Below are positions 44,698 through 64,000 of a DNA stretch of 64,000 bases, in pieces; the first letter of the stretch is position 1; the number at the start of each line of letters is the position of its first letter. This DNA comes from Candidatus Eiseniibacteriota bacterium. GTDB lineage: Bacteria; Eisenbacteria; RBG-16-71-46; CAIMUX01; VGJL01. The stretch spans positions 576,001-640,000 of the forward strand of contig CAWBWI010000006.1 in assembly GCA_963792585.1 (NCBI GenBank), in the 5' to 3' direction. Both the position numbers and the translations under genes were made by a program. The notes beneath the pieces are model-generated. The model ran no database searches and was not told the origin of the DNA. It saw nothing but the letters and a program-made list of their open reading frames with translations.

Positions 44698-44949
44698 CAC
44701 CCAGAACCGCCGGACGGCGTTTCTCCTTTACGACGGGGCTCGATCTTCTTATCCTTAGACCGACGTCAAGAGCTTCTGCGCTCGGGTACGACCTCGCTTA
44801 TCCAGAACGACATACCCTGAGCCACTCCTGGCGGTGGTGGTCGCTATGTGGGTTTCCTTATGGTGGATGCGGTCCCCCACGCCCTCCCCAGGACGCACGT
44901 ACCATCGCACCTTCCGCCGCCTATCTGCCTTCTCTCACGCCGATCCCAA

Positions 44950-44984
44950 TCCCTTACCCGAGATCTGTCCACTAAACGTTAGGC
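44950..44984 (+). other. attI site (core GTTAGGC at 44978-44984; left limit approximate)
   Basis: First GTTRRRY, preceded by CACTAAAC with no attC hairpin; matches GCCTAAC of attC1. Confidence 0.75.
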
Positions 44985-45012
44985 GAGTGTTGCGATCGAA
45001 GGAGTCCATCCA

Positions 45013-45489
45013 ATGACACCACTCATTGCGTTGATTACCAGGGTGTGCGTTCTCGGTGCAGTGGCACTGACCCTCCACAATCCATGGTTTGAGGCAGAGC
45101 TCAGCGGCGCAGACGTCGTTCCGGCCACCGAGTCGCACGGATCAGCCTTCGTGGCTTGGTACTGGACGGAAGAGTCCGAGGTCAGCGACGTCTACATCTC
45201 ATACGGGAACCTCTCAGGCACCGTTACCGGGGCTTACGTGGCGAAGGGGACTGACTCTGAGAATGGGCCTGTCGCACGTACTCTCGCATCGAGTTACTTT
45301 TCTAGCCCCCTTTCCATGACAGTCGAGGCCCTCGCTTCTGACCGCGCTCTCTTGGAGGCGGACTCTGTATACGTGGTCATCACAACCACCGCGTACCCAA
45401 ACGGGGAACTCCGCGGTCGCTTCGTCGAGTCCCACGCCCCCGCAACGCGCGAGGCAACGTGGGGTTCAGTACGTGCCAGCTTCAGATAG
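45013..45489 (+). CDS. Cassette 1: secreted CHRD-domain protein with TWG C-terminal motif
   Basis: AELSGADVVP..YVVITT..YPNGELRG; ends TWGSVRASFR. Confidence 0.8.
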   Translation: MTPLIALITRVCVLGAVALTLHNPWFEAELSGADVVPATESHGSAFVAWYWTEESEVSDVYISYGNLSGTVTGAYVAKGTDSENGPVARTLASSYFSSPLSMTVEALASDRALLEADSVYVVITTTAYPNGELRGRFVESHAPATREATWGSVRASFR

Positions 45490-45504
45490 GCCCACAACCT
45501 TGTC

Positions 45505-45635
45505 GCCTAACAGACGCATTCACCTGACGCGCTGGCCCGTCACGGCCCTGGCAGACAAGCATAGAAGGCAAGACCATCTCCTCGGGCTGCCAGGGCCGCG
45601 CCGGCCTCAGCCCGCAGGTGATGCGAACGTTAGAC
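45505..45635 (+). repeat. attC1 (type A)
   Basis: GCCTAAC..CATTCACCTG..CAGGTGATG..GTTAGAC. Confidence 0.92.
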
Positions 45636-45678
45636 ACGGTCTGACCAGACCGTGTGGTTCATCGCCTCTGGAGGGCTT

Positions 45679-46191
45679 ATGAGTGTGCGTGCAAGAAGTG
45701 CTACCTACTTGGTCTTCTTGGCTACGACGTTACTCGCGCCTGGCGTGGCATTTCCGCAGAGGGCCTGTGTATACACCAGCTTCGCCCTGCCGGACAGTGT
45801 TGTCCCTCCGCTGCAAGGCCAGGGTTGGGCGCACATGTTGTTGCTTGATGATCGCGATGACTGCGACTCGGCCGATTCAGTTTGGCTTAGCGTGAATTAT
45901 GGAAGCCTCGAAAGCAATGTCAACGGCGCTAGCATTCACCGTGGTGCTGTGGGCCAGAATGGCGACGAGATTCTCTCCCTATTCACCGAACTGTTCGAGA
46001 CCAACACCCATGTCAGGAAGTATCTTGATCCAGCTGTCTGTCGGGAGATCCTCAATCCAGAGGGTGCATTCTACTTCATCGTGACGACAGTTGATCACCC
46101 TGATGGTGCAGTTCGCGGACAGGTGTGGGTAGATCGCCAGTCCCCCGTATCCCGTTCCACTTGGGGTCGCATAAAATGCTCCTACAGGTAG
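45679..46191 (+). CDS. Cassette 2: secreted CHRD-domain protein with TWG motif
   Basis: VVPP, ASIHRG..GQNG, FYFIVTT.DHPDGAVRGQ; ends TWGRIKCSYR. Confidence 0.8.
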   Translation: MSVRARSATYLVFLATTLLAPGVAFPQRACVYTSFALPDSVVPPLQGQGWAHMLLLDDRDDCDSADSVWLSVNYGSLESNVNGASIHRGAVGQNGDEILSLFTELFETNTHVRKYLDPAVCREILNPEGAFYFIVTTVDHPDGAVRGQVWVDRQSPVSRSTWGRIKCSYR

Positions 46192-46198
46192 GAACCGT

Positions 46199-46329
46199 GT
46201 CTAACAGCCGCATTCACCTGACGCGCTGGGCCGTCACGGCCCTGGCAGAGACGCATAGAAGCTCGAACTATTACCGAGCGCTGCCAGGGCCGCGCCGGCC
46301 ACAGCCCGCAGGTGATGCGAACGTTAGAA
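46199..46329 (+). repeat. attC2 (type A)
   Basis: GTCTAAC..GTTAGAA. Confidence 0.92.
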
Positions 46330-46668
46330 GGTCTTTCACCAACTCCGAAGAATTCGCGATGTTCTCGGAAGCTCCTACCTGTCGTCAGCATGGAGGTCGG
46401 TGTCGAGCCTTCTCGCGCTGTGATCACACGCCAGATGACTTCGGCTCCCGCATCGCTGTGCCCTTTCCAACTAGGCCAGGGACTTCAAGAGCCGGCGGCG
46501 GCATGCCTGAGTTCTCCGAAGTGCCCTCAGATTCCACAACGGCTCATCCACTCGAGTCCCAGAAGCGTGGAAGAATCGGTTGTGCACGCGGGTTCGCCGG
46601 TGCAATCGCCGCCACCGGTCGCCATCACACGAAACCGGGTGGCCATCATTCAGCGAGTGAGGAAGCCG
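46330..46668. other. Cassette 3: gene-less cassette family 1, copy 1
   Basis: No credible RBS or gene; homologous to cassettes 5 and 23. Confidence 0.65.
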
Positions 46669-46803
46669 TTCTAACAGCCGCGTTCACCTGCCGCGCTTGC
46701 CCTGACACGGCTCTGGCGATGTCGCCAAGAACCCAAGAAACTGTCACCCGTGCTCGCCAGAGCCGCGCCAGGTCTGCGCCCGCAGGTGACGCGAACGTTA
46801 GGT
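46669..46803 (+). repeat. attC3 (type C, 135 bp)
   Basis: TTCTAAC..CGTTCACCTG..CAGGTGACG..GTTAGGT. Confidence 0.9.
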
Positions 46804-46808
46804 GTCTC

Positions 46809-47252
46809 TTGCGTCGGCCGTTATCACTCGCTGTCAGATCCCAGTTGGCACTCTTCCTTGAGGTCATGTGCCTCACGGCCGTCGGGTGCTCATCCAGCAC
46901 AGTGGTTCAGCGAAGTGCACTCCCGACTCTCGCAGGCGATGCGTCCGGAACGAGTCATGCTCGCCTTGGCAAGAACGTCACCTTGCTTCTTGACGACCAT
47001 ACCAAGCTCAAGGGGAAGCTGATCCGAGTCTCCTGCCGCCCGGAGACCACCTTGGTCGTGGAAACAGACAACGCTTCGTCAGTTGACCCGTTCGCCGGGC
47101 GTCCCGATACCGTATCCGTCCCGCTGAGGGACGTCCGACGCATCATGACGCGCTCCACACCTGGCGGTGCTGTTATCGCGGCAGGGTTCTTTGTGGGAAT
47201 CGTGATTGTGGCGGTGGCCGTTGAGCCCAAGCTCTCGTTCCACCCAGATTGA
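46809..47252 (+). CDS. Cassette 4: putative lipoprotein with C-terminal hydrophobic segment
   Basis: Lipobox-like AVGC; near-identical to cassette 11; start uncertain. Confidence 0.65.
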   Translation: MRRPLSLAVRSQLALFLEVMCLTAVGCSSSTVVQRSALPTLAGDASGTSHARLGKNVTLLLDDHTKLKGKLIRVSCRPETTLVVETDNASSVDPFAGRPDTVSVPLRDVRRIMTRSTPGGAVIAAGFFVGIVIVAVAVEPKLSFHPD

Positions 47253-47277
47253 GGTCTGCAATGCTTTGTGGTTCGAC

Positions 47278-47408
47278 ACCTAACAGCCGCATTCACCTGA
47301 CGCGCTGGGCCGTCACGGCCCTGGCAGAGAAGCATAGAAGGCAAGATCATCGCCCCGGGCTGCCAGGGCCGCGCCGGCCACAGCTCGCAGGTGATGCGAA
47401 CGTTAGAA
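47278..47408 (+). repeat. attC4 (type A)
   Basis: ACCTAAC..GTTAGAA. Confidence 0.92.
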
Positions 47409-47748
47409 GGTCTTTCACCAACGCCGAAGAATTTCGCAATGTTCTCAGATGCTCCTGCCTGTCGTCAGCATTTCGGCCGGTGTCGAGCCTTCTCGCGCTG
47501 CAATCACACCGCCGATGACTTCGGCTGCTGCATCGCTGTGCCCTATCCAACTAGCCCGGGAACTTCAAAAGCCGGCGGCGGCATGCCTGAGCTCTCTGAA
47601 GCGCCCTCAGCATCCATCACGCCACAATTATTCGAGCTCCAGATGCATAGAGCTGCCAATCTTGCAGACGGATCCAATAGTGGAATTGCCGCCACCGGTT
47701 GCCATCCCACTGACTTGGGTGGCCATCATTCACCGCGAGAGGAAGCCA
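47409..47748. other. Cassette 5: gene-less cassette family 1, copy 2
   Basis: Homolog of cassette 3 with one extra base near 47433. Confidence 0.65.
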
Positions 47749-47883
47749 TTCTAACAGCCGCGTTCACCTGCCGCGCTTGCCCTGACACGGCTCTGGCGGT
47801 GTCGCCAGGAACCCAGGAATCTGTCACCCGTGCTCGCCAGAGCCGCGCCAGGCCCGCGCCCGCAGGTGACGCGAACGTTATGT
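47749..47883 (+). repeat. attC5 (type C)
   Basis: TTCTAAC..GTTATGT. Confidence 0.9.
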
Positions 47884-47926
47884 TGCGGTTGCGGCCAACG
47901 AGGCCTCCCATGGCGAGAACACTTTC

Positions 47927-48316
47927 ATGAGCAATCGCGTCCCTGGCATGCTCGTCTTGCTACTCACCTGCTTTGGGTGTGGCGACTCGCATGATCCCCG
48001 CCTCATTGTGGAAACCTCGATCACCATCAGCGGCACCGTCGTGGATAACTCTGATCAGTCACCTGCGGAGAGCGTCCTGGTTGTTCATGAGTTCTTCCAC
48101 AGCACCGACTCTTCTTGGACACCTTTCAACTCCTGCCTAACCAACGCGAACGGTTTCTACATCACCGGTGAGCCACAAACTGGTCGTCCATCTGGTCGGT
48201 TCTTGTTTCAGAAGCCTAGATACGAGCCCCTGATCCTCGGCGCCGAGGAGGCTCGTCAGGATAACAGCGGCTCCTTTGTCCTCGACGCGACCATTCAGCC
48301 AATCAGAGGAAATTGA
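47927..48316 (+). CDS. Cassette 6: lipoprotein, carboxypeptidase-regulatory-like beta-sandwich
   Basis: Lipobox-like CFGC; ISGTVVD, TNANGFY, FQKPRY. Confidence 0.7.
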   Translation: MSNRVPGMLVLLLTCFGCGDSHDPRLIVETSITISGTVVDNSDQSPAESVLVVHEFFHSTDSSWTPFNSCLTNANGFYITGEPQTGRPSGRFLFQKPRYEPLILGAEEARQDNSGSFVLDATIQPIRGN

Positions 48317-48376
48317 CATGGGCCGTCACTCATTCGCCAATATCGGAGACCGATCGCCCACTGCTGAGGCCCGCGA

Positions 48377-48507
48377 ACATAACAACCGCATTCACCTGAC
48401 GCGCTGGCCCGTCACGGCCCTGGCAGAGAAGCATGGAAGCCAAGACCACCGCCTTGGGCTGCCAGGGCCGCGCCGGCCCCAGCCCGCAGGTGATGCGAAC
48501 GTTAGAC
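48377..48507 (+). repeat. attC6 (type A)
   Basis: ACATAAC..GTTAGAC. Confidence 0.92.
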
Positions 48508-48527
48508 GAGTATTACGCCGCAGAGCT

Positions 48528-49070
48528 ATGGCGTCCGTGTGGTCTGTCGGGACCCTCCTGATGGTCACTTCCTTTGCGATCGCCGCCGGCGAGAAGCCCA
48601 ATGCCGGGTACGGCTGTCGCCTAAGCGCCGATACTTCCCTCGTTGTAGGCTCTTCTTCACGCCGACTCGCGAAATTGGCCCAGTGTCCACCGCCCGTCTA
48701 CCCGGACAGCGCCAGGACCAACTGTATCTGTGGTCGCGTCCTTGCCCGTTGCAGCGTCCGCAGGTACGAGCCCATCCCGATTCGACGCTCCCCACCTCTG
48801 TTAGGTGATGGGGCCACCCGCCATGTCGAGATCATCACTGCTGAACCTCCAGGCATCTTCGAAGCCGCGGTCCGCCATGCACTCTCTCGCGCCCGCTTCT
48901 ACCTGCCGTCAGCTGCAGTAGGTGACACATCCGATGCAACGGCTTTGGTATCCGTTACGTTCGCACTCGATGCCAATGCTCGTTGGCGCGACTGCAAGTG
49001 CCTTCCCGATCACTACGCAGGGGCCACAGACAGCGTCATCGTCTCCGCTGCCATGTTGGTGATCCAGTGA
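48528..49070 (+). CDS. Cassette 7: exported TonB C-terminal-like domain protein
   Basis: Signal peptide; PPVYPDSA..G.V, VEII.AEPPGIFEAAV. Confidence 0.7.
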   Translation: MASVWSVGTLLMVTSFAIAAGEKPNAGYGCRLSADTSLVVGSSSRRLAKLAQCPPPVYPDSARTNCICGRVLARCSVRRYEPIPIRRSPPLLGDGATRHVEIITAEPPGIFEAAVRHALSRARFYLPSAAVGDTSDATALVSVTFALDANARWRDCKCLPDHYAGATDSVIVSAAMLVIQ

Positions 49071-49077
49071 TGAGATC

Positions 49078-49208
49078 GTCTAACAGCCGCATTCACCTGA
49101 CGCGCTGGGCCGTCACGACCCTGGCAGAATTGCATAGAGGACCAATCTACCACCTCGGGCTGCCAGGGCCATGCCGGCCTCAGCCCGCAGGTGATGCGAA
49201 CGTTAGGC
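49078..49208 (+). repeat. attC7 (type A)
   Basis: GTCTAAC..GTTAGGC. Confidence 0.92.
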
Positions 49209-49223
49209 ACATGGGAGGCTGAG

Positions 49224-49802
49224 ATGTCCAAGTGCATGAGGGTGTTGCTTGCCTGTGCTCTTGCGATTGCTGTCCAGGCGGTAGCAGATCCAATCGACCA
49301 GTGTGGCCGCATCATTCCGAGCTGGGATTGCAGCATCTTCTACCCTCTCCAGGGCGGAGGCGCGAGGTACTCGATTGACGCGTCTTCGGTCCCGGACTCC
49401 TCATCGCGAATTGTTTGGCGGGTTGTTGGCGACGTGGTTTCCTGCGACCACGCCTGCAACGACGCTTCAGTCACCGATTGCATCATCAACAGCCATGTTT
49501 CCCCATGTCCATCGACTGACCTCGGATGCGGGGTACTTTCCAGACTCTATTATCCCGACATTGGGTATCTCTGCTTCTTCTGGACATCGCCCGTCTACGG
49601 TTCACTCCTAACACCCTCCCACGGCTTCGTAGCAGGGGACACGATCCACGTCGTAGGCATCGTTGACTACAGGGGTGTAACAGGTCCCTGTGACACTGCC
49701 GAAGGGTACTTGTGGAACGAAGTGCTCACTACTTGTTCAGACTCTGTTTCATCGGCCGAGGAAACGACCTGGGGAAGACTGAAGTTTCTCTTCCGGAGGT
49801 AA
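49224..49802 (+). CDS. Cassette 8: secreted Cys-rich two-repeat protein with TWG motif
   Basis: Signal peptide; DLGCG, HGFVAGDTIHVVG shared with cassette 10 family; ends TWGRLKFLFRR. Confidence 0.78.
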   Translation: MSKCMRVLLACALAIAVQAVADPIDQCGRIIPSWDCSIFYPLQGGGARYSIDASSVPDSSSRIVWRVVGDVVSCDHACNDASVTDCIINSHVSPCPSTDLGCGVLSRLYYPDIGYLCFFWTSPVYGSLLTPSHGFVAGDTIHVVGIVDYRGVTGPCDTAEGYLWNEVLTTCSDSVSSAEETTWGRLKFLFRR

Positions 49803-49810
49803 GGGCAGGT

Positions 49811-49941
49811 GCCTAACAGCCGCATTCACCTGACGCGCTGGGCCGTCACGGCCCTGGCAGAGACGCATAGAAGCCAAGACCATCGCCTCGGGCTGCCAGG
49901 GCCGCGCCGGCCTCAGCCCGCAGGTGATGCGAACGTTAGAC
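49811..49941 (+). repeat. attC8 (type A)
   Basis: GCCTAAC..GTTAGAC. Confidence 0.92.
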
Positions 49942-49945
49942 TGAT

Positions 49946-50344
49946 ATGAAACGACTTGATCACCGGCGGAGCAGGATTCTCATCATCGTACTTTGCCTCG
50001 TTATAGTGGCTGGGAGCGTTGATGGCGGCTTGTATCTGTCGTCGAAGCGCCCAGCGTCATCTCCGTCATCCACTTCGTTCGTGCGCCTGACAGCTCAATC
50101 CGCGATCCATCCTCTTATGGGATTCGCACTGCCGTTCATGTGCGTCGCGCGACAGGGTGGACTGGGTGGCTTCCTTGGAATCCTGGCGGTCCTGACGACG
50201 GCTCTTGTGGTTCTTGCAGCTCGCCACTTCCTGATTCGGGGGACCTGGAAAGCGCTCGGCGGGGTTCTCACCGCTGGGCTCTTCTCATATTGGTTGAGCA
50301 CACGATTGCTCTATGGAGTTCTCTATGGACCCGCTTGGTACTGA
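49946..50344 (+). CDS. Cassette 9: hypothetical membrane protein
   Basis: 132 aa, 3-4 hydrophobic helices, fills most of the cassette. Confidence 0.65.
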   Translation: MKRLDHRRSRILIIVLCLVIVAGSVDGGLYLSSKRPASSPSSTSFVRLTAQSAIHPLMGFALPFMCVARQGGLGGFLGILAVLTTALVVLAARHFLIRGTWKALGGVLTAGLFSYWLSTRLLYGVLYGPAWY

Positions 50345-50506
50345 GGCTCTGGCCTCCCTCGCGCTTGTTCGCGAGCGTGCGGTTGGTGCCATGGCGCTCC
50401 CGCACTCGAATACCAGGCTCATCCCAGAACCGCCCGTCCAGAATCGCGTCCGATCGTTCTCTCGCCTTGGAGTTGACCAGACTATTCCGAACCACTTGAG
50501 GCGCCA

Positions 50507-50637
50507 GTCTAACAGCCGCATTCACCTGACGCGCTGGGCCGTCACGGCCCTGGCAGAGAAGCATAGAAGGCAAGACCATCACCCGTGGCTGCCAGGGCCG
50601 CGCCGGCCACAGCCCGCAGGTGATGCGAACGTTAGGC
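50507..50637 (+). repeat. attC9 (type A)
   Basis: GTCTAAC..GTTAGGC. Confidence 0.92.
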
Positions 50638-50666
50638 CTCGTGTTGGCGTTCGAGCCTGCGTTGTC

Positions 50667-51221
50667 GTGCTCTTTCTCATCGTGTCGGCAATTGGGTGGT
50701 CGTTCGCTGATGCTCAGGATCCCCGCGACGCTTTCGACGGCTGCGGCGAGCTCGTCGACTGGAGCGGCTGCAGGTACCTCTACTCATACGACCAAGATGT
50801 CAATCTCCTTCTTGCTGACTTCGGTGGCTATGTCGCTGGAGATACAGTTCACGTCGTCGGCACAGCGAGCATCACTTTCGAGTCCTGCGCGGGAAGCCCC
50901 TTCTACTGGCGCCTCACCCCCAGTTCCATCACTCGGTGTCTTCCGTCCGACCTCGGGTGCGGAGTAATCGTTGGCAGCTTGGCCGCCGGGTGCTCGTACT
51001 GGTCCTCTGAAGCATATGGAAAACTCGACCTGCTTGACCGCCACGGGTTCGCGCCCGGTGACACGGTTCACGTGAGCGGGGTTGTGTGCTGGTGCGGGGG
51101 CCAGACATGTCATCCGTTTGGGGATGGTGAGATACGCAGTGAGAGGCTCAGAGCGTGTAGTGACTCACTTAGCGCAGTCGTACCCCTTACGTGGGGAAGG
51201 GTGCGAATGTTGTTCCGTTAG
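50667..51221 (+). CDS. Cassette 10: secreted Cys-rich two-repeat protein with TWG motif (copy 1)
   Basis: Repeats GCG..C..GDTVHV.G; ends TWGRVRMLFR; GTG here is ATG in cassette 21; start uncertain. Confidence 0.75.
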   Translation: MLFLIVSAIGWSFADAQDPRDAFDGCGELVDWSGCRYLYSYDQDVNLLLADFGGYVAGDTVHVVGTASITFESCAGSPFYWRLTPSSITRCLPSDLGCGVIVGSLAAGCSYWSSEAYGKLDLLDRHGFAPGDTVHVSGVVCWCGGQTCHPFGDGEIRSERLRACSDSLSAVVPLTWGRVRMLFR

Positions 51222-51230
51222 GAGGACGAT

Positions 51231-51361
51231 GCCTAACAGCCGCATGCACCTGACGCGCTGGGCCGTCACGGCCCTGGCAGAGAAGCATAGAAGGCAAGAT
51301 CATCGCTCCGGGCTGCCAGGGCCGCGCCGGCCTCAGCTCGCAGGTGATGCGAACGTTAGGT
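51231..51361 (+). repeat. attC10 (type A)
   Basis: GCCTAAC..GTTAGGT. Confidence 0.92.
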
Positions 51362-51366
51362 GTCTC

Positions 51367-51810
51367 TTGCGTCGACCGTTATTACTCGCTGTCAGATCCC
51401 TGTTGGTACGCTTCCTTGAGGTCATGTGCCTCACGGCCGTCGGGTGCTCATCCAGCACAGTGGTCCAGCGAAGTGCACTCCCGACTCTCGCAGGCGATGC
51501 GTCCGGAACGAGTCATGGTCGCCTTGGCAAGAACGTCACCTTGCTTCTTGACGACCATACCAAGCTCAAGGGGAAGCTGATCCGAGTCTCCTGCCAGCCG
51601 GAGACCACCTTGGTCGTGGAAACAGACAACGCTTCGTCAGTTGACCCGTTCGCCGGGCGTCCAGATACCGTATCCGTCCCGCTGAGGGAGGTCCGACGCA
51701 TCATGACGCGCTCCACACCTGGGGGTGCTGTTATCGCGGCAGGGTTCTTCGTGGGAATCGTGATTGTGGCGGTGGCCGCTGAGCCCAAGCTCTCGTTCCA
51801 CCCAGATTGA
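51367..51810 (+). CDS. Cassette 11: putative lipoprotein, copy of cassette 4
   Basis: Same length and nearly the same sequence as 46809-47252. Confidence 0.65.
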   Translation: MRRPLLLAVRSLLVRFLEVMCLTAVGCSSSTVVQRSALPTLAGDASGTSHGRLGKNVTLLLDDHTKLKGKLIRVSCQPETTLVVETDNASSVDPFAGRPDTVSVPLREVRRIMTRSTPGGAVIAAGFFVGIVIVAVAAEPKLSFHPD

Positions 51811-51835
51811 GGTCTGCAATGCTTTGTGGTTCGAC

Positions 51836-56715: not shown

Positions 56716-56779
56716 GTTTCGTATCGAATGACCAGCTGACAGGCCCCCGAGGCCCAAGATGAACAAGAGGAGATGAGGT

Positions 56780-56910: not shown

Positions 56911-56932
56911 GGATTGTGGGTCGCCGTGCCTC

Positions 56933-57346
56933 TTACAGCGTGGGAGGACTACGCCTGAGGAGAAGCCAGAGGCCTCTCGGGTCCACGATCCGAACGGGTG
57001 ACTTGGATGCCACCGCGAGCAGGTCGGCATCGCCCGTCACGAGCACATCTACCTGTGCCGCATTTGCACTGGCGAGTACCCATCGATCGTCGGGATCCCT
57101 AACCACGATCTCGGATTGGACCTTCGGTCGAGGCACGACTTCATGCTCCCTCAGGTACTCCTCGATGCTGTCGACCATGGCGGCGGGTAGCTTGAGTTTC
57201 GAGCGAAGCACCTTCCGAAGCTCTCGTAGCACGACCTCACCGAGAACCAATTCGTGCTCGGCAAGGACATGCCGAAGCACGTCGGCACACAGCCCTCGTG
57301 TGGCAAATGCGCTGACGAGAACGTTCGTGTCGAGGAAGATCCTCAC
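56933..57346 (-). CDS. Cassette 18: PIN-domain (VapC-like) toxin
   Basis: IFLDTNVLVSA, RDPDD, LVTGD.DLL. Confidence 0.92.
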   Translation of the reverse strand: MRIFLDTNVLVSAFATRGLCADVLRHVLAEHELVLGEVVLRELRKVLRSKLKLPAAMVDSIEEYLREHEVVPRPKVQSEIVVRDPDDRWVLASANAAQVDVLVTGDADLLAVASKSPVRIVDPRGLWLLLRRSPPTL

Positions 57347-57561
57347 GAGACCTCTCGGGTTATGTCCTCGTCTGTCAGATACCCCCGTGCCTCTGCAAAC
57401 GGGAGTACTTGCCTCCGGAGTTGCTCGAATCGAAGCAACTTCAGCTGGCGTTGAAGCGCTTCCCGAACGATCTCACTCCGCGTCCGGCCCGTCTGTTCTG
57501 CAAGCCGGTCAAGGAGTTGGCTTAGGCTGGGATCCAGCCGGATGGTGATGGAGTCGCTCAT
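57343..57561 (-). CDS. Cassette 18: ribbon-helix-helix antitoxin
   Basis: ITIRLD..L...LD.LA...GRTRSEIVREAL; GTGA overlap with toxin. Confidence 0.88.
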   Translation of the reverse strand: MSDSITIRLDPSLSQLLDRLAEQTGRTRSEIVREALQRQLKLLRFEQLRRQVLPFAEARGYLTDEDITREVS

Positions 57562-57597
57562 GTATGACAGTGTAAGACACCACCCGAGACCTGTCAA
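57562..57597 (-). promoter_or_regulatory. Sigma70-type promoter of the TA cassette
   Basis: TTGACA-N17-TACACT, 7 nt before the antitoxin ATG; GTCTTAC/GTCATAC repeats overlap the -10. Confidence 0.8.
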
Positions 57598-57603
57598 TAG
57601 CCC

Positions 57604-57734
57604 GCAGAACTGCCGCATTCACCTGACGCGCTGGGCCGTCACGGCCCTGGCAGGAAACCATAGAAGGCAAGATCATCGCCCCGGGCCGCCAGGGCCGCGC
57701 CGGCCTCAGCCCGCAGGTGATGCGAACGTAATCT
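57604..57734 (+). repeat. attC18 (type A) with non-canonical core GTAATCT
   Basis: GCAGAAC..GTAATCT. Confidence 0.85.
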
Positions 57735-57759
57735 CTTCCCTAGAAGGTCCTCCTTGGAG

Positions 57760-58290
57760 ATGAGTCGATTTCCCCAGAATCTTGGTTCACCCAATGGGCT
57801 CGCCCTTCTGTTGGTGGCTGTCCTTATGCTTGCCTGTGGTGGTGATCACCACGAGAGCGTCTTCAGCCCGGTGCGCGAGCTTCACGGCCAATGCTTCGGG
57901 GGTACTGACTGCTCAATGTCGTCGGTTCGCGCTTGCCTTGATCTCGACACCGGCAATCTGCCAAGCATGAATCAGGGCAGGTCAGCGATCCTTCTCCGAG
58001 GTCGGGCTCCTCATCGAACTGACTGGCGCGACTTCATCCCGCTAGATTTTGATGGGATGCTTCCAGCTGAAGTAGACCCTGGCGCGAAGTTCCAATCCGG
58101 CTGGAAGGTGAGCGTTCGTGGCGCCAGGATCGAGTACTGCCAGACGTGTTATACCAACTCGGGGCTAGCTGAACTCATCAGCCTCCGCGCCCCTCTTGAC
58201 TCACTTCGCTTCATTTACGATCCGGCCGATACAGTACGTCTATTCGTCGAAGTGTTCCAAACGGCTCCGCTGACTGAATTGGAGAGATAA
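57760..58290 (+). CDS. Cassette 19: putative lipoprotein
   Basis: Lipobox MLAC; stop codon lies inside attC19. Confidence 0.7.
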   Translation: MSRFPQNLGSPNGLALLLVAVLMLACGGDHHESVFSPVRELHGQCFGGTDCSMSSVRACLDLDTGNLPSMNQGRSAILLRGRAPHRTDWRDFIPLDFDGMLPAEVDPGAKFQSGWKVSVRGARIEYCQTCYTNSGLAELISLRAPLDSLRFIYDPADTVRLFVEVFQTAPLTELER

Positions 58291-58415
58291 CAGCCGCGTT
58301 CACCTGCCGGGCGGGTCCGTCACGGCCCTGGCGAGGAGGCCAATGAAGATGAATCACCACCCGATGCCGCCAGGTCCGCGCCGGACCTCGCCCGCAGGTG
58401 ACGCGAACGTTAGCT
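58285..58415 (+). repeat. attC19 (type B)
   Basis: AGATAAC..GTTAGCT. Confidence 0.9.
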
Positions 58416-58465
58416 TTTCATCGTCAAGCCCTGCAGCCTTACAAACGACCCCGCGACTATCGCCT

Positions 58466-59668
58466 ATGCTTCTCTCGTCCGCACTGGTCATCGGGTTCTT
58501 CGCCGCCTTGTCGTATCTCCTCCAGGCGCGGGTCCCCTTCATCTCCAGCCGCCTCGATGTTTGGCTCGGAACCGATATCGGACGATTCACCTCAATCTGG
58601 ATGCTGGGCGGCCACGCTCGATTCCATCTACATCCACTTCCGTTCGCAATCTACTACCTCTTCGGCGCCATCGTCCGCCTCTTCGGCCTATCCCCGCTCG
58701 ATCTGCCACTACCCATCTTGGCCCTTCCCGTAATTGCAATCGTTACGGCGTGTTTGCAGGTCGGAAGTACCCAGATCGGATCGGCGTACTTGCCACATCG
58801 CCCAATCATGGCTCGAACCCTCGTCGTCGTCGCCTTACTCATTGGTCCTGCCCTTGCATTCCTGCCGGTTCCGGAGAGTCATATGATGGGTGGCGCGTTT
58901 CTGTTTTTCGAAGGGGCCCTTGTCCTGCGGGTCTTGCGATCCGGTATCGATCCGCTCGACAATGGCCGTTCTCGCCACTACATGAGGGCAGCCACTGTTG
59001 TCGCCCTACTAAGTGCCACCTGCACCATCACGAACATCGTGCCCGCGCTTCTGCTCTTGATGCCGGCCGTCGCGGCCGCCGGTCACGTCCGCATCCGAGG
59101 CGGGCGATTCGGTATCGCATTCCTGGGCGTCGCCATTCTCGCGATCTTGCTGTTGATCCGAACTCCTGTCTTGGTGCTTCTGAAACACGAAAGCGGCGCA
59201 ATGACGGTCATCAGCGTGGCGTCCATAGCACGGAGCTTTCTGGGGCTCACCATCCAACAGTTTGGCATTCCGGACTTGCGGACTTACACTGCCGACCATC
59301 TCCGACCCGACCTTGTTCGGATCCTTCCCGTCCGAAGTGCATCCGTCATTTCGGTGCTGGGTTTCTTAGCCTGGATTGCAGCACTCTGCCAGTGGTGGCA
59401 CGTCCGCACTCGTGGCACCGCCGACCGGGCGTTCCTGGTCTGGGCCGGGCTCGCGCTTGGTTCGTTGCTTCTCCTCCACTCCGTCTACGCAAGCCGCGAA
59501 GCTTACCTGTTCTCGGCGCATGCGTGGCCGATCTTCGTTCTTTCGACCCAGATGTTCCTTCTCGACGGGCTCGGGCAAGCTCGGCCGATTCGAATGCTCT
59601 TGCCATGCCTCGTAGTGGTCATGTCCGTCGTTCAGTCCCTTCTCGTCATGACCAGGGTGTTTGCTTAG
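58466..59668 (+). CDS. Cassette 20: polytopic membrane protein (possibly GT-C-like)
   Basis: About 10 hydrophobic helices; HPL, VPESH, EAYLFSAH; start uncertain. Confidence 0.65.
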   Translation: MLLSSALVIGFFAALSYLLQARVPFISSRLDVWLGTDIGRFTSIWMLGGHARFHLHPLPFAIYYLFGAIVRLFGLSPLDLPLPILALPVIAIVTACLQVGSTQIGSAYLPHRPIMARTLVVVALLIGPALAFLPVPESHMMGGAFLFFEGALVLRVLRSGIDPLDNGRSRHYMRAATVVALLSATCTITNIVPALLLLMPAVAAAGHVRIRGGRFGIAFLGVAILAILLLIRTPVLVLLKHESGAMTVISVASIARSFLGLTIQQFGIPDLRTYTADHLRPDLVRILPVRSASVISVLGFLAWIAALCQWWHVRTRGTADRAFLVWAGLALGSLLLLHSVYASREAYLFSAHAWPIFVLSTQMFLLDGLGQARPIRMLLPCLVVVMSVVQSLLVMTRVFA

Positions 59669-59712
59669 ATTGAGGAGTGGGCCAATGACAGCAGGGAGCA
59701 TCAGAGGATGAA

Positions 59713-59843
59713 AGCTAACAGCCGCGTTCACCTGTCGGGCGGCTCCGTCACGGCCCTGGCGAGGAAGCGAATGAAGATGAATCACCACTTGGTGCCGCCA
59801 GGTCCGCGCCGGACCTCGCCCACAGGTGATGCGAACGTTAGGC
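59713..59843 (+). repeat. attC20 (type B)
   Basis: AGCTAAC..GTTAGGC. Confidence 0.9.
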
Positions 59844-59872
59844 TTCGTGTTGGCGTTCGAGCCTCCGTTGTC

Positions 59873-60427
59873 ATGCTCTTTCTAGTCGTCTCGGCAATTG
59901 GGTGGTCGTTCGCTGATGCTCAGGATCCTCGCGATGCATTCGACGGCTGCGGCGAGCTCGTCGAATGGAACGGCTGCAGGTACTTCTACTCATACGACCA
60001 ATTTCCGAATCTCCTTCTTGATAATTTCGGTGGCTATGTCGCTGGAGATACAGTTCATGTCGTCGGCACGGCGAGCATCGCTTTCGAGTCCTGCGCGGGA
60101 ATCCCCTTCTACTGGCGCCTCGCCCCCAGTTCCATCACTCGGTGTCTCCCGTCCGACCTCGGCTGCGGAGTCATCGTTGGCAGCTTGGACGGAGGGTGCA
60201 CCTACTGGTCATCTACAGAACATGGGAAACTCGACTTGCTTGACCGCCACGGGTTCGCGCCCGGTGACACTGTTCACGTGAGCGGGATTGTATGCTGGTG
60301 TGGGGGCCAGACATGTCATCCATTTGGGGATGGGCAGATATTCAGTGAGAGGCTGAGAGCGTGTAGTGACTCACTTAACGCAGTCGTATCCCTGACGTGG
60401 GGAAGGGTGCGAATGTTGTTCCGTTAG
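59873..60427 (+). CDS. Cassette 21: diverged copy 3 of the cassette 10 protein
   Basis: Same length, multiple substitutions, Cys residues and TWGRVRMLFR retained. Confidence 0.78.
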   Translation: MLFLVVSAIGWSFADAQDPRDAFDGCGELVEWNGCRYFYSYDQFPNLLLDNFGGYVAGDTVHVVGTASIAFESCAGIPFYWRLAPSSITRCLPSDLGCGVIVGSLDGGCTYWSSTEHGKLDLLDRHGFAPGDTVHVSGIVCWCGGQTCHPFGDGQIFSERLRACSDSLNAVVSLTWGRVRMLFR

Positions 60428-60436
60428 GAGGACGAT

Positions 60437-60567
60437 GCCTAACAACCGCATTCACCTGACGCGCTGGGCCGTCACGGCCCTGGCAGAGAAGCATAGAAGG
60501 CTCGACCATCATCCCGGGTTGCCAGGGCCGCGCCGGCCTCAGCTCGCAGGTGATGCGAACGTTAGAC
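60437..60567 (+). repeat. attC21 (type A)
   Basis: GCCTAAC..GTTAGAC. Confidence 0.92.
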
Positions 60568-60587
60568 GTCTCTTGAGGGAGGAGCAC

Positions 60588-61097
60588 ATGTCTCGCGGTC
60601 GTCCCAGCAGGTTCGCCCAGTGCGTCACGCTCTTGATCTTGGTCATCATCCCATCGCTTGCCCTCTCGGCTAGCTGGCATGCGTTCATGGTCGGAGACAA
60701 GGTTGTTCCGCCGGTTGACACTTCGTCTGCTGGCGAAGCCGGCGCCACGTTCGCCCCCGACGACACGTGTGGTGACAGTCTCTATGTCTTCGCATCTTTC
60801 TTTCTTCAGGAAGGGGTCCCGGTGGCATGGGAGTTCCACCTTGGTAGTCCCGAGGAGAATACGCCCAGCATGGCACGAACGACCAGCTTCGTGCGGGACG
60901 AGTATGGCGTTTACCAATGTTCCATGCGGGTACCTTTCGATGGGTCATCGACTAAGTGTGACAGTCTCGATCAGGGACTCACGTATGGCATCCTCACGAC
61001 GTCGAGCCATCCTGATGGCGAGATCAGGGGTTACTTTGAGCGCGTGAGCCCTGTGTCTCAAGTGACCTGGGGCAGCATCCGACGGAACTTCCGATGA
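60588..61097 (+). CDS. Cassette 22: secreted CHRD-domain protein with TWG motif
   Basis: RBS GGAGG; VVPPVDTS.AG.A.A, FHLG, HPDGEIRG; ends TWGSIRRNFR. Confidence 0.8.
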   Translation: MSRGRPSRFAQCVTLLILVIIPSLALSASWHAFMVGDKVVPPVDTSSAGEAGATFAPDDTCGDSLYVFASFFLQEGVPVAWEFHLGSPEENTPSMARTTSFVRDEYGVYQCSMRVPFDGSSTKCDSLDQGLTYGILTTSSHPDGEIRGYFERVSPVSQVTWGSIRRNFR

Positions 61098-61107: not shown

Positions 61108-61238
61108 GTCTAACAGCCGCGTTCACCTGCCGGGCGGCTCCGTCACGGCCCTGGCGAGGAAGCCAATGAAGATGAATCACCGCGCCGTGCCGCCAGGTCC
61201 GCGCCGGACCTCGCCCGCAGGTGACGCGAACGTTAGAA
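61108..61238 (+). repeat. attC22 (type B)
   Basis: GTCTAAC..GTTAGAA. Confidence 0.9.
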
Positions 61239-61577
61239 GGTCTTTCACCAACGCCGAAGAATTCGCGATGTTCTCAGACGCTCCTGCCTGTCGTCAGCAT
61301 GTCGGCCGGTGTCGAGCCTCCTCGCGCTGCAATCACACCGCCGATGACTTCGGCTGCCGCATCCCAGTGCCCTTTCCAACTAGCCAGGGCATTTCAAAAG
61401 CCGGCGGCGGCATGCCTGAGCTCTCTGAAGCGCCCTCAGCATCCATCACGCCACGTCCAATCGAGCTTCAGATGCATAGAGCTGCCGATCATGCAGACGG
61501 ATCCAATAGTGGAATTGCCGCCACCGGTCGCCATCACACGAAACTGGGTGGCCATCATTCACCGGGTGAGGAAGCCG
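61239..61577. other. Cassette 23: gene-less cassette family 1, copy 3
   Basis: Homolog of cassettes 3 and 5. Confidence 0.65.
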
Positions 61578-61712
61578 TTCTAACAGCCGCGTTCACCTGC
61601 CGCGCTTGCCCTGACACGGCTCTGGCGGTGTCGCCAAGAACCCAACAATCAGCCACCCGTGATCGCCAGAGCCGCGCCAGGTCTGCGCCCGCAGGTGACG
61701 CGAACGTTAGAT
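61578..61712 (+). repeat. attC23 (type C)
   Basis: TTCTAAC..GTTAGAT. Confidence 0.9.
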
Positions 61713-61727: not shown

Positions 61728-62540
61728 ATGAATCATCAAGTCCCAACGTCAGGGTACCTTGGGAAGGAAGGTAGTGACTGGTCCGCCCGAATGCAGCAGC
61801 AGCATTCGCAGCTGTTCGATGTTTGCACGGCCATGAATACTGCAGCTCACTCCGTCGTCCGTGAGTTGCAGCCGCGCCCTTTCGCGCCTCAGGAATCCAT
61901 CGCAGTCGGTCTGTACCTGCGATGCCTCGACCACTTTCAGAGCGTCGTACTGTTGCGCCGTCAAGGCATGCGAGCACCGGCAAAGGCAGCTCTGCGATGC
62001 TTACTAGAGTGCTTGTTCACAATGCGCGCGATTGTTCGTGACAAGAGTACCTTCACGCATTACGTGCGCAGCGATGACCTTCGCAGGCGCAAGCTCCTCG
62101 ACAAATGTCGTCGTACCGTTTCCACGATCTTCTCCGGTCTTCGCGGACCCGAGGCCGCGACACTACGCGATGAACTCCAAGAGGCCATTCGCACGGAAAA
62201 CATCAGGGAACTCACGGTCGCCCAGCTTGCGGAGAAGGCTGATCTACTGGACATGTACCTTGTCGTGTACAGCGTCCTCTGCAGTTCGGTTCATTCCACT
62301 TCCCGGGATCTTGTGGAGACAATCGCTTTCGACCAGACGAACGGGGTCATCGTCCTCAATACGGGTCCGTCTATGCAGGACGCGTACCTCGACCTCTGCA
62401 CTGCATGCCAGTCGATGGCCCTCGCTCTCGGGGAACTAGGGACGCTCCTAGCTCTGGACGTATCTGACACGGTCAAGTCTCACATGACGGCCGCGAGCGA
62501 TATGCTTGCCCGACACTCCGGAGCAGCCAATGGCATCTAA
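61728..62540 (+). CDS. Cassette 24: cytoplasmic helical protein, DUF5677-like
   Basis: LRCLLE, LAEKA.L..MY..VYS.LCS.VHS pattern; stop inside attC24. Confidence 0.7.
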   Translation: MNHQVPTSGYLGKEGSDWSARMQQQHSQLFDVCTAMNTAAHSVVRELQPRPFAPQESIAVGLYLRCLDHFQSVVLLRRQGMRAPAKAALRCLLECLFTMRAIVRDKSTFTHYVRSDDLRRRKLLDKCRRTVSTIFSGLRGPEAATLRDELQEAIRTENIRELTVAQLAEKADLLDMYLVVYSVLCSSVHSTSRDLVETIAFDQTNGVIVLNTGPSMQDAYLDLCTACQSMALALGELGTLLALDVSDTVKSHMTAASDMLARHSGAANGI

Positions 62541-62665
62541 CAGCCGCGTTCACCTGCCGGGCGGCTCCGTCACGGCCCTGGCGAGGAAGCCAATGAAGAT
62601 GAATCACCACCTGGTGTCGCCAGGTCCGCGCCGGACCTCGCCCACAGGTGACGCGAACGTTATGC
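62535..62665 (+). repeat. attC24 (type B)
   Basis: ATCTAAC..GTTATGC. Confidence 0.9.
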
Positions 62666-62681
62666 CCAGGAGGATGCCCCG

Positions 62682-63071
62682 ATGTCGGTGATCCGCCGCC
62701 TTCCCCTAACGATCCTCATCGCGCTCGTCGGGCTCGTTCCTGCTTGTATCACTGACGATCAACCGCCTCCGGTGGGTGACATTTTCCGAAGCGTCCGGGG
62801 CACCGTGACCGATGTCAGCACGAGTCTCCCTCTATCCGGCGTCACCTGCTTCTGGTCTGACTCATTGCCCTACTACGAGACTTCCGTAACTGACTCCACG
62901 GGGGCTTACAGTGTTCGCGGCTCTGGATCACCTGTTGGCCTTCCAGCAATAGGCCATCTGACTTTCGCGAAGATTGGCTATGACACCTTGACTACTCCTG
63001 CGGCGGCGCTCTTCCCAGACTTGGACACCCAACGATGCACCTACGATGTCAGGATGGTTCGACACCCATGA
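62682..63071 (+). CDS. Cassette 25: lipoprotein, carboxypeptidase-regulatory-like domain
   Basis: Lipobox-like VPAC; VRGTVTD..T..PLSGV, TDSTGAY, FAKIGY. Confidence 0.75.
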   Translation: MSVIRRLPLTILIALVGLVPACITDDQPPPVGDIFRSVRGTVTDVSTSLPLSGVTCFWSDSLPYYETSVTDSTGAYSVRGSGSPVGLPAIGHLTFAKIGYDTLTTPAAALFPDLDTQRCTYDVRMVRHP

Positions 63072-63135
63072 GCCAGATCGAGGAAATAGTTGCGTGCTTC
63101 CGCGGTGACCTCATCGATGGGATTGTCTGGTCCGG

Positions 63136-63266
63136 GCATAACAGCCGCATTCACCTGACGCGCTGGGCCGTCACGGCCCTGGCAGAAGAGCATAGAAGGC
63201 AAGACCATCACCAGAGGCTGCCAGGGCCGCGCCGGCCTCAGCCCGCAGGTGATGCGAACGTTATGT
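63136..63266 (+). repeat. attC25 (type A)
   Basis: GCATAAC..GTTATGT. Confidence 0.92.
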
Positions 63267-63282
63267 TGTTGTGGAGCACTTC

Positions 63283-63978
63283 ATGAGAACCACTTGCGTG
63301 CGAACCTTCATCACGCTCATCGTCTTGGCTCTCTCCATTGTGCCCTTGGACAGCGCCGATGCTTCGGCACGCAGGCTGCGCCCGTCTGCAACCTTGGGTC
63401 TGGTCAGCAGCGGCTTTGCCCCGAACGACGGGGCATTCCACGACTTTCAGCGATCCACGCACTTCACTGCCGGACTGATTCTCGCCCGACATCAGTCACC
63501 CAACTCAGCAATTGAAATGGGTCTCATTCTTGAGCGGCGGGGAACCTCCTGGCGCTCGACCTTTGCCCCCGATGGCGAGTATCGCGAAGCTAAAGGGTTC
63601 ACTCGAAACCTCGATCTCGCGTATCTGGCAGTCCCTCTGCGAATCAGGGCGGGTCTAGCTTCGGGCCGTATTCTACCGTCGCTCCACGCTGGCATGGAGT
63701 TCGGTTGCCTCATGTGGGCTCGCCAGACCACCACCGATCTCCAAAGCGGCATCCGATACGCCGCAGACAACGCCGTTCGCGATGAACTTAGGTCGTGGGA
63801 GGTTGCTGGCTCCATCGGGGGTAGGCTTGCCACCCGGTGGTCGACCCGACTGATCTTCATTGATCTAACGTATGTCCACGGACTCACCTCAGTGGACGAC
63901 GGGGCATTCAAGATCGAAGGTGACATTCCGAGCATTGCGAATCGCGGCATCAGAATGTCCTTGGGCAGCTCGATATGA
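63283..63978 (+). CDS. Cassette 26: outer-membrane beta-barrel protein (same family as cassette 13)
   Basis: Signal peptide; RG, YLAVP, AG.EFG, DLTY.HGLT, NR.IRMSLG. Confidence 0.78.
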   Translation: MRTTCVRTFITLIVLALSIVPLDSADASARRLRPSATLGLVSSGFAPNDGAFHDFQRSTHFTAGLILARHQSPNSAIEMGLILERRGTSWRSTFAPDGEYREAKGFTRNLDLAYLAVPLRIRAGLASGRILPSLHAGMEFGCLMWARQTTTDLQSGIRYAADNAVRDELRSWEVAGSIGGRLATRWSTRLIFIDLTYVHGLTSVDDGAFKIEGDIPSIANRGIRMSLGSSI

Positions 63979-63991
63979 CTTTTGTGCTGCA

Positions 63992-64000
63992 ACATAACAG
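63992..64000 (+). repeat. attC26, start only (truncated by window edge)
   Basis: ACATAAC-AG, complementary to cassette 26 start GTTATGT. Confidence 0.75.

Follow-up and report, generated by a model that had tools for sequence, protein, structure and literature searches.

Phase-locked start codons lead into a common attC reading frame along a chromosomal integron of a Candidatus Eiseniibacteriota bacterium

A chromosomal integron with 41 attC sites

The stretch of DNA analysed here (the window) is 64,000 nt of a Candidatus Eiseniibacteriota bacterium (GCA_963792585.1, contig CAWBWI010000006.1, positions 576,001-640,000, forward). It holds a genuine chromosomal integron with an integrase, IntI, whose catalytic R/HxxR/H/Y motifs were all present in a motif check, and 41 attC sites, 26 of which start within the window while a further 15 follow attC26 outside it. 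At all 41, RYYYAAC/GTTRRRY cores enclose an imperfect hairpin, as in sedentary chromosomal integrons. The hairpin has 32 consensus pairs, 14 of them with two-sided changes (23 sequences), and a stability of about -80 kcal/mol. Cassette ends are complementary, with the first 9 positions matching in 86-100% (28 cassettes) and agreement beyond that at chance level. Sedentary integrons of the Vibrio VCR type likewise combine IntI with long arrays of near-identical attC sites of ~120-130 nt, and toxin-antitoxin, gene-less and duplicated cassettes are shared with them; here, in contrast, intI is co-oriented with the array, a toxin-antitoxin pair lies between intI and attI, and the cargo is mostly secreted proteins. 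The features ahead of the array are:

43016-44026 (+), integron integrase IntI (TIGR02249, 432 bits against a cut-off of 265), same orientation as the array
44132-44697 (+), toxin-antitoxin pair in the intI-attI interval: antitoxin-like ORF 44132-44374 (no Pfam match) and PemK/MazF-like toxin (PF02452, 1e-29; likely start 44359)
44834-45016 (+), attI-spanning ORF, start GTG 44834 or ATG 44846, stop inside the ATGA of gene 1
44969-44986 (+), predicted attI crossover, GTT at 44978, complementary over 9 bp to the distal end of cassette 1

The attI-spanning ORF reads AAC GTT in the frame that the attC sites below also use, a single event with a 1-in-3 phase. A consensus promoter scan gave no match between the toxin-antitoxin pair and attI and 7 overall against 5.4 expected, which is chance level, as were promoter and terminator matches over the locus. 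Rfam returned no family within 40000-64000, the ESM Atlas no usable match for gene 10, and gene-less cassettes 3, 5 and 23 showed synonymous excess in none of six frames. Contigs from other runs carry the same cassette ends beside different neighbours, for example attC3 followed by the start of cassette 30; the search for further arrays of the species yielded one metagenome contig, and none among viral contigs.

An open attC frame and its entry starts

The initial annotation described type A and B sites as 120 stop-free nt from AAC to GTT, translating as NSRIHLTRW...GDANV. This is correct (A to G; 123 nt inclusive), and a single frame is open end to end in 33 of 33 such sites. Frame counts below are given as 0/-1/-2, frame 0 being this open frame; for openness itself they are 33/1/0 of 33. 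Type C sites (3 of the 26 in the window) are 127 nt long, with the AAC frame closed and the GTT-exit frame open. Site by site, the starts leading into attC (entry) and the fate of the frame leaving GTT (exit) are:

45509-45631 (+), attC1, type A: entry TTG 45500 without SD (weak); exit ATGA 45679
46203-46325 (+), attC2, type A: entry GTG 46197 with SD; frame continues through gene-less cassette 3
46673-46799 (+), attC3, type C, 127 nt: GTT frame open over the full 477-nt cassette, fuses into gene 4
47282-47404 (+), attC4, type A: entry ATG 47261; gene-less cassette next
47753-47879 (+), attC5, type C: exit ATGA 47927
48381-48503 (+), attC6, type A: entry ATG 48318, 1 nt past the gene stop, 21 open codons; fuses into gene 7
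49082-49204 (+), attC7, type A: entry TGATG 49070; stop 1 nt ahead of ATG 49224
49815-49937 (+), attC8, type A: entry GTG 49809 with SD; exit ATGA 49946, gene without SD
50511-50633 (+), attC9, type A: open from ATG 50313/50325; fuses into gene 10
50631-51221 (+), gene 10 (copies: 14 at 53384, 21 at 59837): signal-peptide-like stretch from GTT, no SD; first canonical start is codon 13, within the hydrophobic core
51235-51357 (+), attC10, type A: AGGAGG and ATG 51229; fuses into gene 11
51840-51962 (+), attC11, type A: entry ATG 51819; next cassette reverse
52417-52539 (+), attC12, type A: open from ATG 52309; exit ATGA 52566
53264-53386 (+), attC13, type A: entry ATGA 53240; fuses into gene 14
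53988-54110 (+), attC14, type A: AGGAGG and ATG 53982; next cassette reverse
54565-54687 (+), attC15, type A: open from ATG 54457; exit ATGA 54765 past 27 open codons
55463-55585 (+), attC16, type A: entry GTGA 55439 and ATG 55457; exit ATGA 55693 (alternative SD-led start 55711)
56784-56906 (+), attC17, type B loop: entry GTG 56778, SD-led; followed by a reverse-oriented PIN/RHH toxin-antitoxin cassette
57608-57730 (+), attC18, type A, degenerate cores: open from ATG 57542; exit ATGA 57760
58289-58411 (+), attC19, type B: no upstream start; internal GAGGAG and ATG 58343; fuses into gene 20
59717-59839 (+), attC20, type B: entry ATG 59708; fuses into gene 21
60441-60563 (+), attC21, type A: AGGAGG and ATG 60435; fuses into gene 22 (own SD and ATG 60588)
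61112-61234 (+), attC22, type B: entry ATGA 61094; continues through gene-less cassette 23
61582-61708 (+), attC23, type C: stop 1 nt ahead of ATG 61728, gene without SD
62539-62661 (+), attC24, type B: entry ATG 62530 among the final codons of the gene; 10-nt overlap of the stop with ATG 62682
63140-63262 (+), attC25, type A: entry ATGA 63068, 24 open codons; exit ATGA 63283
63975-64000 (+), attC26, start only: entry ATGA 63975, AAC at 63996; site continues past the window

The open frame alone is weak evidence, since the sites are almost identical copies, 43% of shuffled versions lack stops and the peptide shows no constraint. We rejected it as a sign of selection, with 43-45% of shuffled sites stop-free and 0 stops among 79 variants (P = 0.20). 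Stops at the same attC positions numbered 2 against 4.3 expected of 40 (P = 0.14). A functional bridge peptide was likewise rejected, synonymous variants being at chance in both comparisons (20 of 79, with 26% expected, and 8 of 37). DUF1010 and DUF3265 are translations of attC/VCR; neither matched in Pfam when six attC translations and two fusions were searched with E up to 1.

The start codons upstream of the sites are a different matter. All 17 entry coordinates of the initial annotation are ATG, GTG or TTG codons, 58343 is an ATG internal to the type B site attC19 with its GAGGAG, and an in-frame start lies within 8 codons upstream at 17 of 26 sites, versus 5 and 5 in the other frames. This bias exceeds chance outside the window as well: the same criterion gave 9/2/2 of 10 distal cassettes (P = 0.002) and, restricted to ATG, 10/2/0 at the 15 outlying sites (P = 5e-4). 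We further defined a coupled entry as an ATG no more than 12 nt from the upstream gene stop and open to R'', with gene stops assigned by hand, in three cassette sets (window, n = 17; distal array, n = 10 for entry; outlying sites, n = 15). Coupled ATGs fell 9/0/0 of 17 in the window, 10/0/0 of 10 in the distal array (P = 2e-5) and 8/0/0 of 15 at the outlying sites (P = 1.5e-4), or 27 in the open frame and none in the other two across 42 cassettes of this genome; the criterion was chosen after the array 3' ends were known, which leaves the outlying set as the one blind test of coupled entry. For the input half of the "plug standard" that had been proposed, these counts go further than the original claim.

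The lock holds without positions -6 and -9, which are shaped by the recombination stem (14/0/0 of 27), and with one cassette per protein family under the least favourable choice (13/0/0 of 20). No bias was seen in a bottom-strand mirror control (4/4/3 of 28) or a far control (4/2/7 of 28), and stem composition and codon usage both fail as sources of the bias. An SD-like motif precedes 13 of 21 entry starts compared with 17 of 176 internal ATGs, some SD-ATG spacings of merely 3-4 nt counting against a bridge reading. An ATG lies near the stop in 20 of 27 cassettes versus 22 of 89 non-cassette genes sharing the C-terminal motif, and the stop-to-AAC spacers are unrelated between cassettes in sequence and length. 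A phase-locked start into the open attC frame is thus strongly supported.

Arrival at the next gene and comparison with other arrays

The initial annotation also held that the frame leaving GTT couples to every forward gene. The 9 ATGA overlaps, 3 near stops and 8 fusions that it listed are present, but the fusions represent 5 distinct cases, the 20 forward genes only 17 distinct cassettes, and the ATGA at 55693 has a better, SD-led and non-overlapping start at 55711. Within the window coupling is complete (17/3/10 of 17, P = 4e-5), under a three-way criterion fitted there and passed by a random frame in 59% of cases; the held-out cassettes fail it. Neither the distal array (9/7/8 of 13, P = 0.37; continuous distance statistic, P = 0.45) nor the outlying sites (9/4/9 of 15, P = 0.24) went beyond a trend, and the pooled hold-outs gave 16/10/16 of 28 at the original limit (P = 0.25) and 20/12/16 of 28 when it was relaxed to 14 nt (P = 0.047), a test with little power because leaders are short. 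ATGA exits by frame were 9/0/1 in the window and 2/1/3 in the distal array; RTGA exits, which require no start call, were 10/0/2 in the window and 5/1/1 of 15 at outlying sites (P = 0.045). Some start codon opens into the GTT frame at all 26 window sites, type C included.

Tight coupling was found for 10 of 10 genes lacking an SD versus 10 of 20 bearing one (post hoc, Fisher P = 0.011). Two cassette families (10/14/21 and 30) have no canonical start ahead of the signal peptide's hydrophobic core, a 68% identical homologue retains the full core but no Met there, and the database proteins P0001 and P0002 already contain attC peptide. Exit onto the next gene seems only partly standardised: clear near the array front, unconfirmed further out.

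Repeated on other integrons, the phase bias did not prove general. Among 118 other-array cassettes (145 calls by our own attC finder, less near-duplicates and 5 loci whose orientation was unsure), whose automatic gene starts are noisier than the window's, exits were flat (31/29/30 of 67), and the entry bias (56/34/24 of 118) was mirrored on the bottom strand (50/24/27 of 118) and faded past -9 (3/0/3 of 37); we rejected a general integron rule on these grounds. Relatives with a homologous attC family showed no bias in ATG entry (10/8/7 of 73), coupled ATGs (2/5/5 of 29) or exit (22/17/20 of 47), an argument against the bridge reading, since arrays elsewhere tolerate long hairpins in the absence of bridges.

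Proposed bridge ORFs across attC and competing readings

We think, with somewhat more confidence than doubt, that selection has led cassettes of this lineage to begin a bridge ORF spanning attC, one that would keep ribosomes on the hairpin and feed the next gene. Ribosomes finishing the upstream gene would re-initiate at the entry start and translate some 45-65 throw-away codons through the ~ -80 kcal/mol hairpin, melting it, avoiding a long untranslated gap and protecting the polycistronic mRNA; the peptide itself would have no function. Translation, like the ribosome relay built on it, we infer from sequence. Every recombination event cuts at G/TT, so the frame would persist however the cassettes are reordered. 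Cassettes that themselves carry a good SD could tolerate a nearby stop at any position, while those lacking one would rely on the bridge through an ATGA overlap or an in-frame signal-peptide fusion, from which signal peptide cleavage would remove the bridge-derived extension. A bolder version is possible, if doubtful: a codon-phase interface standard in which all cassette ends launch one attC frame, so that cassettes may shed SD and start, secreted attC-peptide fusions are trimmed by signal peptidase, the array becomes a reorderable translational chain, and the phase fingerprints cassette assembly.

Precedents exist in attC short ORFs and in ORF-11/ORF-18; what differs here is one frame across the array and a phase-locked entry. 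In class 1 integrons, an ORF translated through the attC hairpin has been proposed to lift the block that the hairpin imposes, permitting termination-reinitiation at the following cassette (Jacquier et al. 2009, PMID 19486293, as described in PMC8876359 and PMC8191803). Here too a start lies near the upstream stop and the ORF runs through attC. Jacquier-type short ORFs are described for individual class 1 cassettes and mutants, whereas here the frame is common to nearly all of 41 chromosomal sites, entry is phase-locked (27 of 27) and the bridge continues into some genes as a fusion. ORF-11, ORF-17 and ORF-18 of attI1 have their own SD and ATG, cross the crossover point and take their stop from the following cassette, ORF-18 also extending into the cassette leader; within the ORF-11 family the peptide sequence is unimportant and TIR-deficient cassettes are aided (PMC8876359). 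The bridge peptide, with synonymous shares at chance, appears equally dispensable. The attI1 ORFs act at the first position only, whereas the device here repeats at every attC; and where ORF-11 usually stops at a TAG in positions 3-5 of GTTRRRY, the bridges read GTT as Val, first stopping at +6 to +111 or fusing. By analogy the bridge would work like ORF-11/ORF-18 yet be distinct from ORF-11. Longer untranslated stretches reduce downstream cassette expression and mRNA, but when attC was deleted from 10 class 1 cassettes, only a minority showed a change in downstream expression, which counts against bridges (PMC11511950). The literature covered, mostly main texts in non-subscription journals (Jacquier et al. 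2009 may hold an in-silico survey), contained no array-wide attC frame and no report of a frame standard in sedentary chromosomal arrays.

Could every forward cassette both launch and precisely catch the ribosome, making the whole array one chain in any order? The window favours such a two-sided standard, with 17 of 17 exits (P = 4e-5), ATGA 9/0/1, RTGA 10/0/2 and a start open into the GTT frame at all 26 sites including type C, and the hold-outs, older and partly decayed cassettes, lean alike (20/12/16 of 28 at 14 nt; outlying RTGA 5/1/1). We nevertheless regard it as unlikely: distal exits (9/7/8 of 13, ATGA 2/1/3, distance P = 0.45) and the pooled set (P = 0.25) do not follow, and reverse and gene-less cassettes break the chain.

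It seems comparably improbable that the phase is an imprint of cassette genesis, in which donor transcripts were cut a few codons into the next operon gene, for instance through mRNA cleavage in phase with ribosomes followed by reverse transcription, leaving ATGs that are real but relics in fixed codon phase to attC. The 3' ends do resemble a stop, an SD and the first codons of another gene, with unrelated spacers, and the bias is lineage-specific. Yet a microhomology junction in coding DNA predicts ~53:47 for frames 0:-2 (199 versus 179 TAAC contexts) and not 27:0 (P = 3e-8), only 22 of 89 comparable non-cassette genes have a nearby ATG, the ATGs are kept at outlying sites differing from the consensus at 12-35 of 123 positions, and start-less genes and the window's ATGA exits are left unexplained.

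Chance combined with recombination-site composition (R'' fixes G at -4, ends are complementary over ~9 bp, GC-rich frames are often open, copies are non-independent) accounts for the open frame itself and for the weak, mirrored bias of other integrons fading past -9, but is very improbable as a full account and largely refuted for entry, because this genome's ATGs lie at -6 to -72, stand at 14/0/0 without the stem positions, have no mirror and recur in two further sets.

The 27:0 phase lock bears on array expression far from Pc and on how cassettes are made. A single ATG or loop base can be changed without altering the recombination hairpin, so a sharp and cheap test is available. If the bridges are translated, attC would connect reading frames as well as serve recombination, the effect of a cassette's position would vary with the 3' end of its upstream neighbour, and gene callers would mis-assign N-termini in such arrays; synthetic integrons could then borrow the device for even expression after shuffling.

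Array layout and the open frame through attC

The array of G000, the Candidatus Eiseniibacteriota genome under study, contains 41 attC sites, the first 26 in the window, with ~23 kb of array lying past the window end. Its head is arranged as follows:

43016-44026, same strand as the array: integron integrase (TIGR02249, 432 bits)
Between intI and attI, within 43016-44986: MazF-like TA pair
44978: candidate attI

A sigma-70-like site (44085-44113) lies upstream of the MazF-like TA pair, and a TTTACG-17-TATCCT element near 44727, spotted by eye, may be Pc. Elsewhere in the genome there are 18 more attC-like matches, mostly decayed, of which 13 still span exactly 123 nt while carrying 12-35 substitutions. 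Decayed clusters are found on contig C1 (~1934600-1941700 and 1880000-1881500, minus strand; 267200-269300, plus strand) and on contig C3 at 1030023 (plus strand), and the search results held no integrase near them. Across the phylum, 63 of 206 genomes have an integron integrase above the cut-off, and within the class 44 of 151 have the attC family of this array. On the metagenome contig L121:1-543, the reverse-oriented cassette 12, with a type A attC, is accompanied by a second cassette and the beginning of an apparently different integrase, an arrangement hinting at transfer between integrons.

For sites 1-37, the distance from AAC to GTT inclusive is 123 nt in 33, 127 nt in three (type C, a single cassette family) and 122 nt in one. 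The stop-free frame across attC described in the initial annotation is present in all 33 sites of 123 nt, which are open end-to-end in the AAC frame; the +1 frame is open in one of them, the -1 frame in none. Alone, this is weak evidence, because the sites make up two near-identical types, shuffling gives a stop-free frame in 43-45% of cases, and synonymous variants in the attC frame occur at the chance rate (20/79; 8/37). For 40 type A sites taken together, which are non-independent copies, the test for stop avoidance gave 2 observed vs. 4.3 (P = 0.14) or 8.2 (P = 0.005) expected, by the null chosen.

At type C sites the AAC frame is closed and the frame leaving GTT is open, passing through the entire 477-nt cassette in two of three copies. 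The three copies (46323-46799, 47402-47879 and 61232-61708), which have diverged, lack a gene and carry a 127-nt attC type specific to this cassette; two overlapping forward frames in them are open for ~116 codons. No synonymous bias was seen in these two frames, and the cassette may be a non-coding RNA or serve purely as a pass-through spacer. Errors of long-read assembly may account for three single-base frame breaks, one in cassette 5 at window 47430-47440 and the others past the window end at array site 34 and in cassette 29; in that case the frame would be more uniform still.

Start codons at cassette 3' ends

Phase was assessed by rotation: each cassette was scored three times, in the AAC frame (0) and in the frames at -1 and -2 from it (counts are in this order), with the three frames exchangeable under the null. 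As hold-outs we used 15 distal and 18 outlying attC sites that had not been seen in the initial annotation. The in-frame start within eight codons upstream, reported at 17 of 26 window sites, was recovered (17/5/5), and it persisted after duplicates were collapsed (14/3/4 of 20, P = 3e-4) and in the distal hold-out (9/2/2 of 10 cassettes, P = 0.002). The controls gave 4/4/3 for the bottom-strand mirror and 4/2/7 for codons 9-16 (of 28).

We then defined a coupled ATG more sharply, as one lying ≤12 nt from the stop of the upstream gene with an open path to R''. Twenty-seven array cassettes were scored, leaving out eight duplicates, three reverse or gene-less and three multi-gene or degenerate cassettes, and the counts were 9/0/0 of 17 in the window and 10/0/0 of 10 in the distal array. 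This criterion was set after the array had been seen, and the blind set is the outlying sites only; there, after the removal of 3 of 18 sites whose left arm was poor or whose upstream ORF was short, the count was 8/0/0 of 15. The cassette ends are complementary over 9 bp, with a potential bias at positions -6 and -9; without these positions 14/0/0 of 27 remain, and keeping a single representative of each protein family gives at worst 13/0/0 of 20. An ATG is found near the stop in 20/27 cassettes, vs. 22/89 non-cassette genes with the same C-terminal motif (see below) and 1366/4161 long ORFs. A Shine-Dalgarno-like (SD) motif precedes 13/21 entry starts vs. 17/176 internal ATGs. Long spacers conform as well: in cassettes 6, 25 and 33 the ATG sits at the stop, and 21-24 open codons lead to AAC.

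Proposed hand-over to the next gene, and cassette cargo

The frame leaving GTT had been proposed to couple to every forward gene, by an ATGA stop/start overlap, a stop ≤10 nt from the start or an in-frame fusion. This stood in the window, at 17/3/10 of 17 distinct forward cassettes (P = 4e-5), under a criterion that was fitted there and that a random frame satisfies in 59% of cases, and it failed in both hold-outs. ATGA endings in the window numbered 9/0/1 (P = 4e-4), or 7-8 in frame 0 with other start calls. The distal array gave 9/7/8 of 13 (P = 0.37; ATGA 2/1/3; continuous statistic P = 0.45) and the outlying sites 9/4/9 of 15 (P = 0.24). Pooled hold-outs with one automatic caller and the 10-nt limit gave 16/10/16 of 28 (P = 0.25); at 14 nt they gave 20/12/16 (P = 0.047) or 19/11/16 (P = 0.066), and with the start-call-free RTGA 7/3/3 (P = 0.10). 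Given these distal, outlying and pooled results, exit coupling in the hold-outs is a trend rather than a replication.

Post hoc, tight coupling was seen in 10/10 SD-less vs. 10/20 SD-bearing genes, a comparison in which "fusion" overlaps in part with "no clear start" as an observation. The SD-less cassettes include 9, 10, 24 and 30. Gene starts in the array 5' leaders cluster 22-23 nt past the G of GTT (8/30 cassettes). In cassettes 10, 14, 21 and 30 a positively charged and then hydrophobic stretch starts at GTT itself, and the first canonical start comes at codon 13 in the family 10/14/21 (GTG, replaced by ATG in copy 21; SD absent) and at codon 22 in cassette 30. Family 10 may use the codon-13 start together with a short signal peptide. 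Three of 335 candidates matched, two of them in the window itself; the third, a homologue with 68% identity, has the complete hydrophobic core and lacks a Met at this position. Assembly errors do not explain the 5' ends of cassettes 14 and 30, as both recur in contigs of other runs, where the same cassettes have different neighbours.

Many cassette proteins (genes 1, 2, 8, 10, 14, 16, 21 and 22, window 45013-61097) end in [ST]WGx[ILV][KR]xx[FY]R, as do 103 ORFs genome-wide. This terminus looks like a C-terminal sorting signal; it matched no NCBIfam model, and a literature search for it yielded nothing relevant. Four cassette proteins are secreted CHRD-domain proteins (45013-46191, 60588-61097 and cassette 27 beyond the window), three by Pfam match and the fourth by tblastn, and cassettes 8, 10, 14, 21, 30, 31 and 34 encode members of a cysteine-rich, secreted protein family that corresponds to no known one.

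Other integrons and the possible origin of the phase lock

When the phase test was repeated on other integrons, neither an entry nor an exit lock was found. Among homologous attC sites from 22 related genomes (73 of 86 passing the quality filter), 35/73 have a span divisible by three (P = 0.007, with kin not independent), ATG entry is 10/8/7 of 73 and exit 22/17/20 of 47. The 118 cassettes taken from other arrays have a start bias (56/34/24) that the bottom strand mirrors (50/24/27), and their exits favour no frame (31/29/30 of 67). Coupled ATGs number 2/5/5 of 29 elsewhere in the phylum. For other phyla the count is 8/0/3 of 37, and removing the stem positions leaves 3/0/3. As relatives, other arrays and other phyla have no comparable bias, the phase lock is a property of G000 alone among the sampled genomes and not a general integron rule. 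Our literature searches found no report of an array-wide phase lock across attC sites.

As RNA, the attC hairpins have predicted energies of -68 to -80 kcal/mol, and the frame at attI is the same as at the attC sites. In the proposed relay, ribosomes would re-initiate at the entry ATG, translate a bridge ORF through the attC hairpin, and be handed over to the next gene via an overlap, a nearby stop or a fusion. Passages of published work describe attC short ORFs that relieve the hairpin through termination-reinitiation (PMC8876359, citing Jacquier 2009; PMC8191803), and attI1 ORF-11 and ORF-18 that serve TIR-deficient cassettes, the peptide being dispensable (PMC8876359). Sections of PMC11511950 report that longer untranslated segments lead to less downstream mRNA and protein, and that attC deletion mattered in a minority of 10 cassettes; DUF1010 is handled solely as an uncharacterised cassette gene in the relevant part of PMC11616780. 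By analogy, the attC and attI1 ORF data make bridge translation plausible.

The main rival is that the phase lock is an imprint of cassette genesis, which may itself have been ribosome-phased. A simple microhomology version of that imprint is excluded, since it predicts 199:179 for frames 0 vs. -2, where coupled ATGs occur in frame 0 only. The relay principle is already known for single cassettes and attI1. The observation in the G000 array behind the proposed relay is real, its entry half being stronger than first stated and its exit half weaker.
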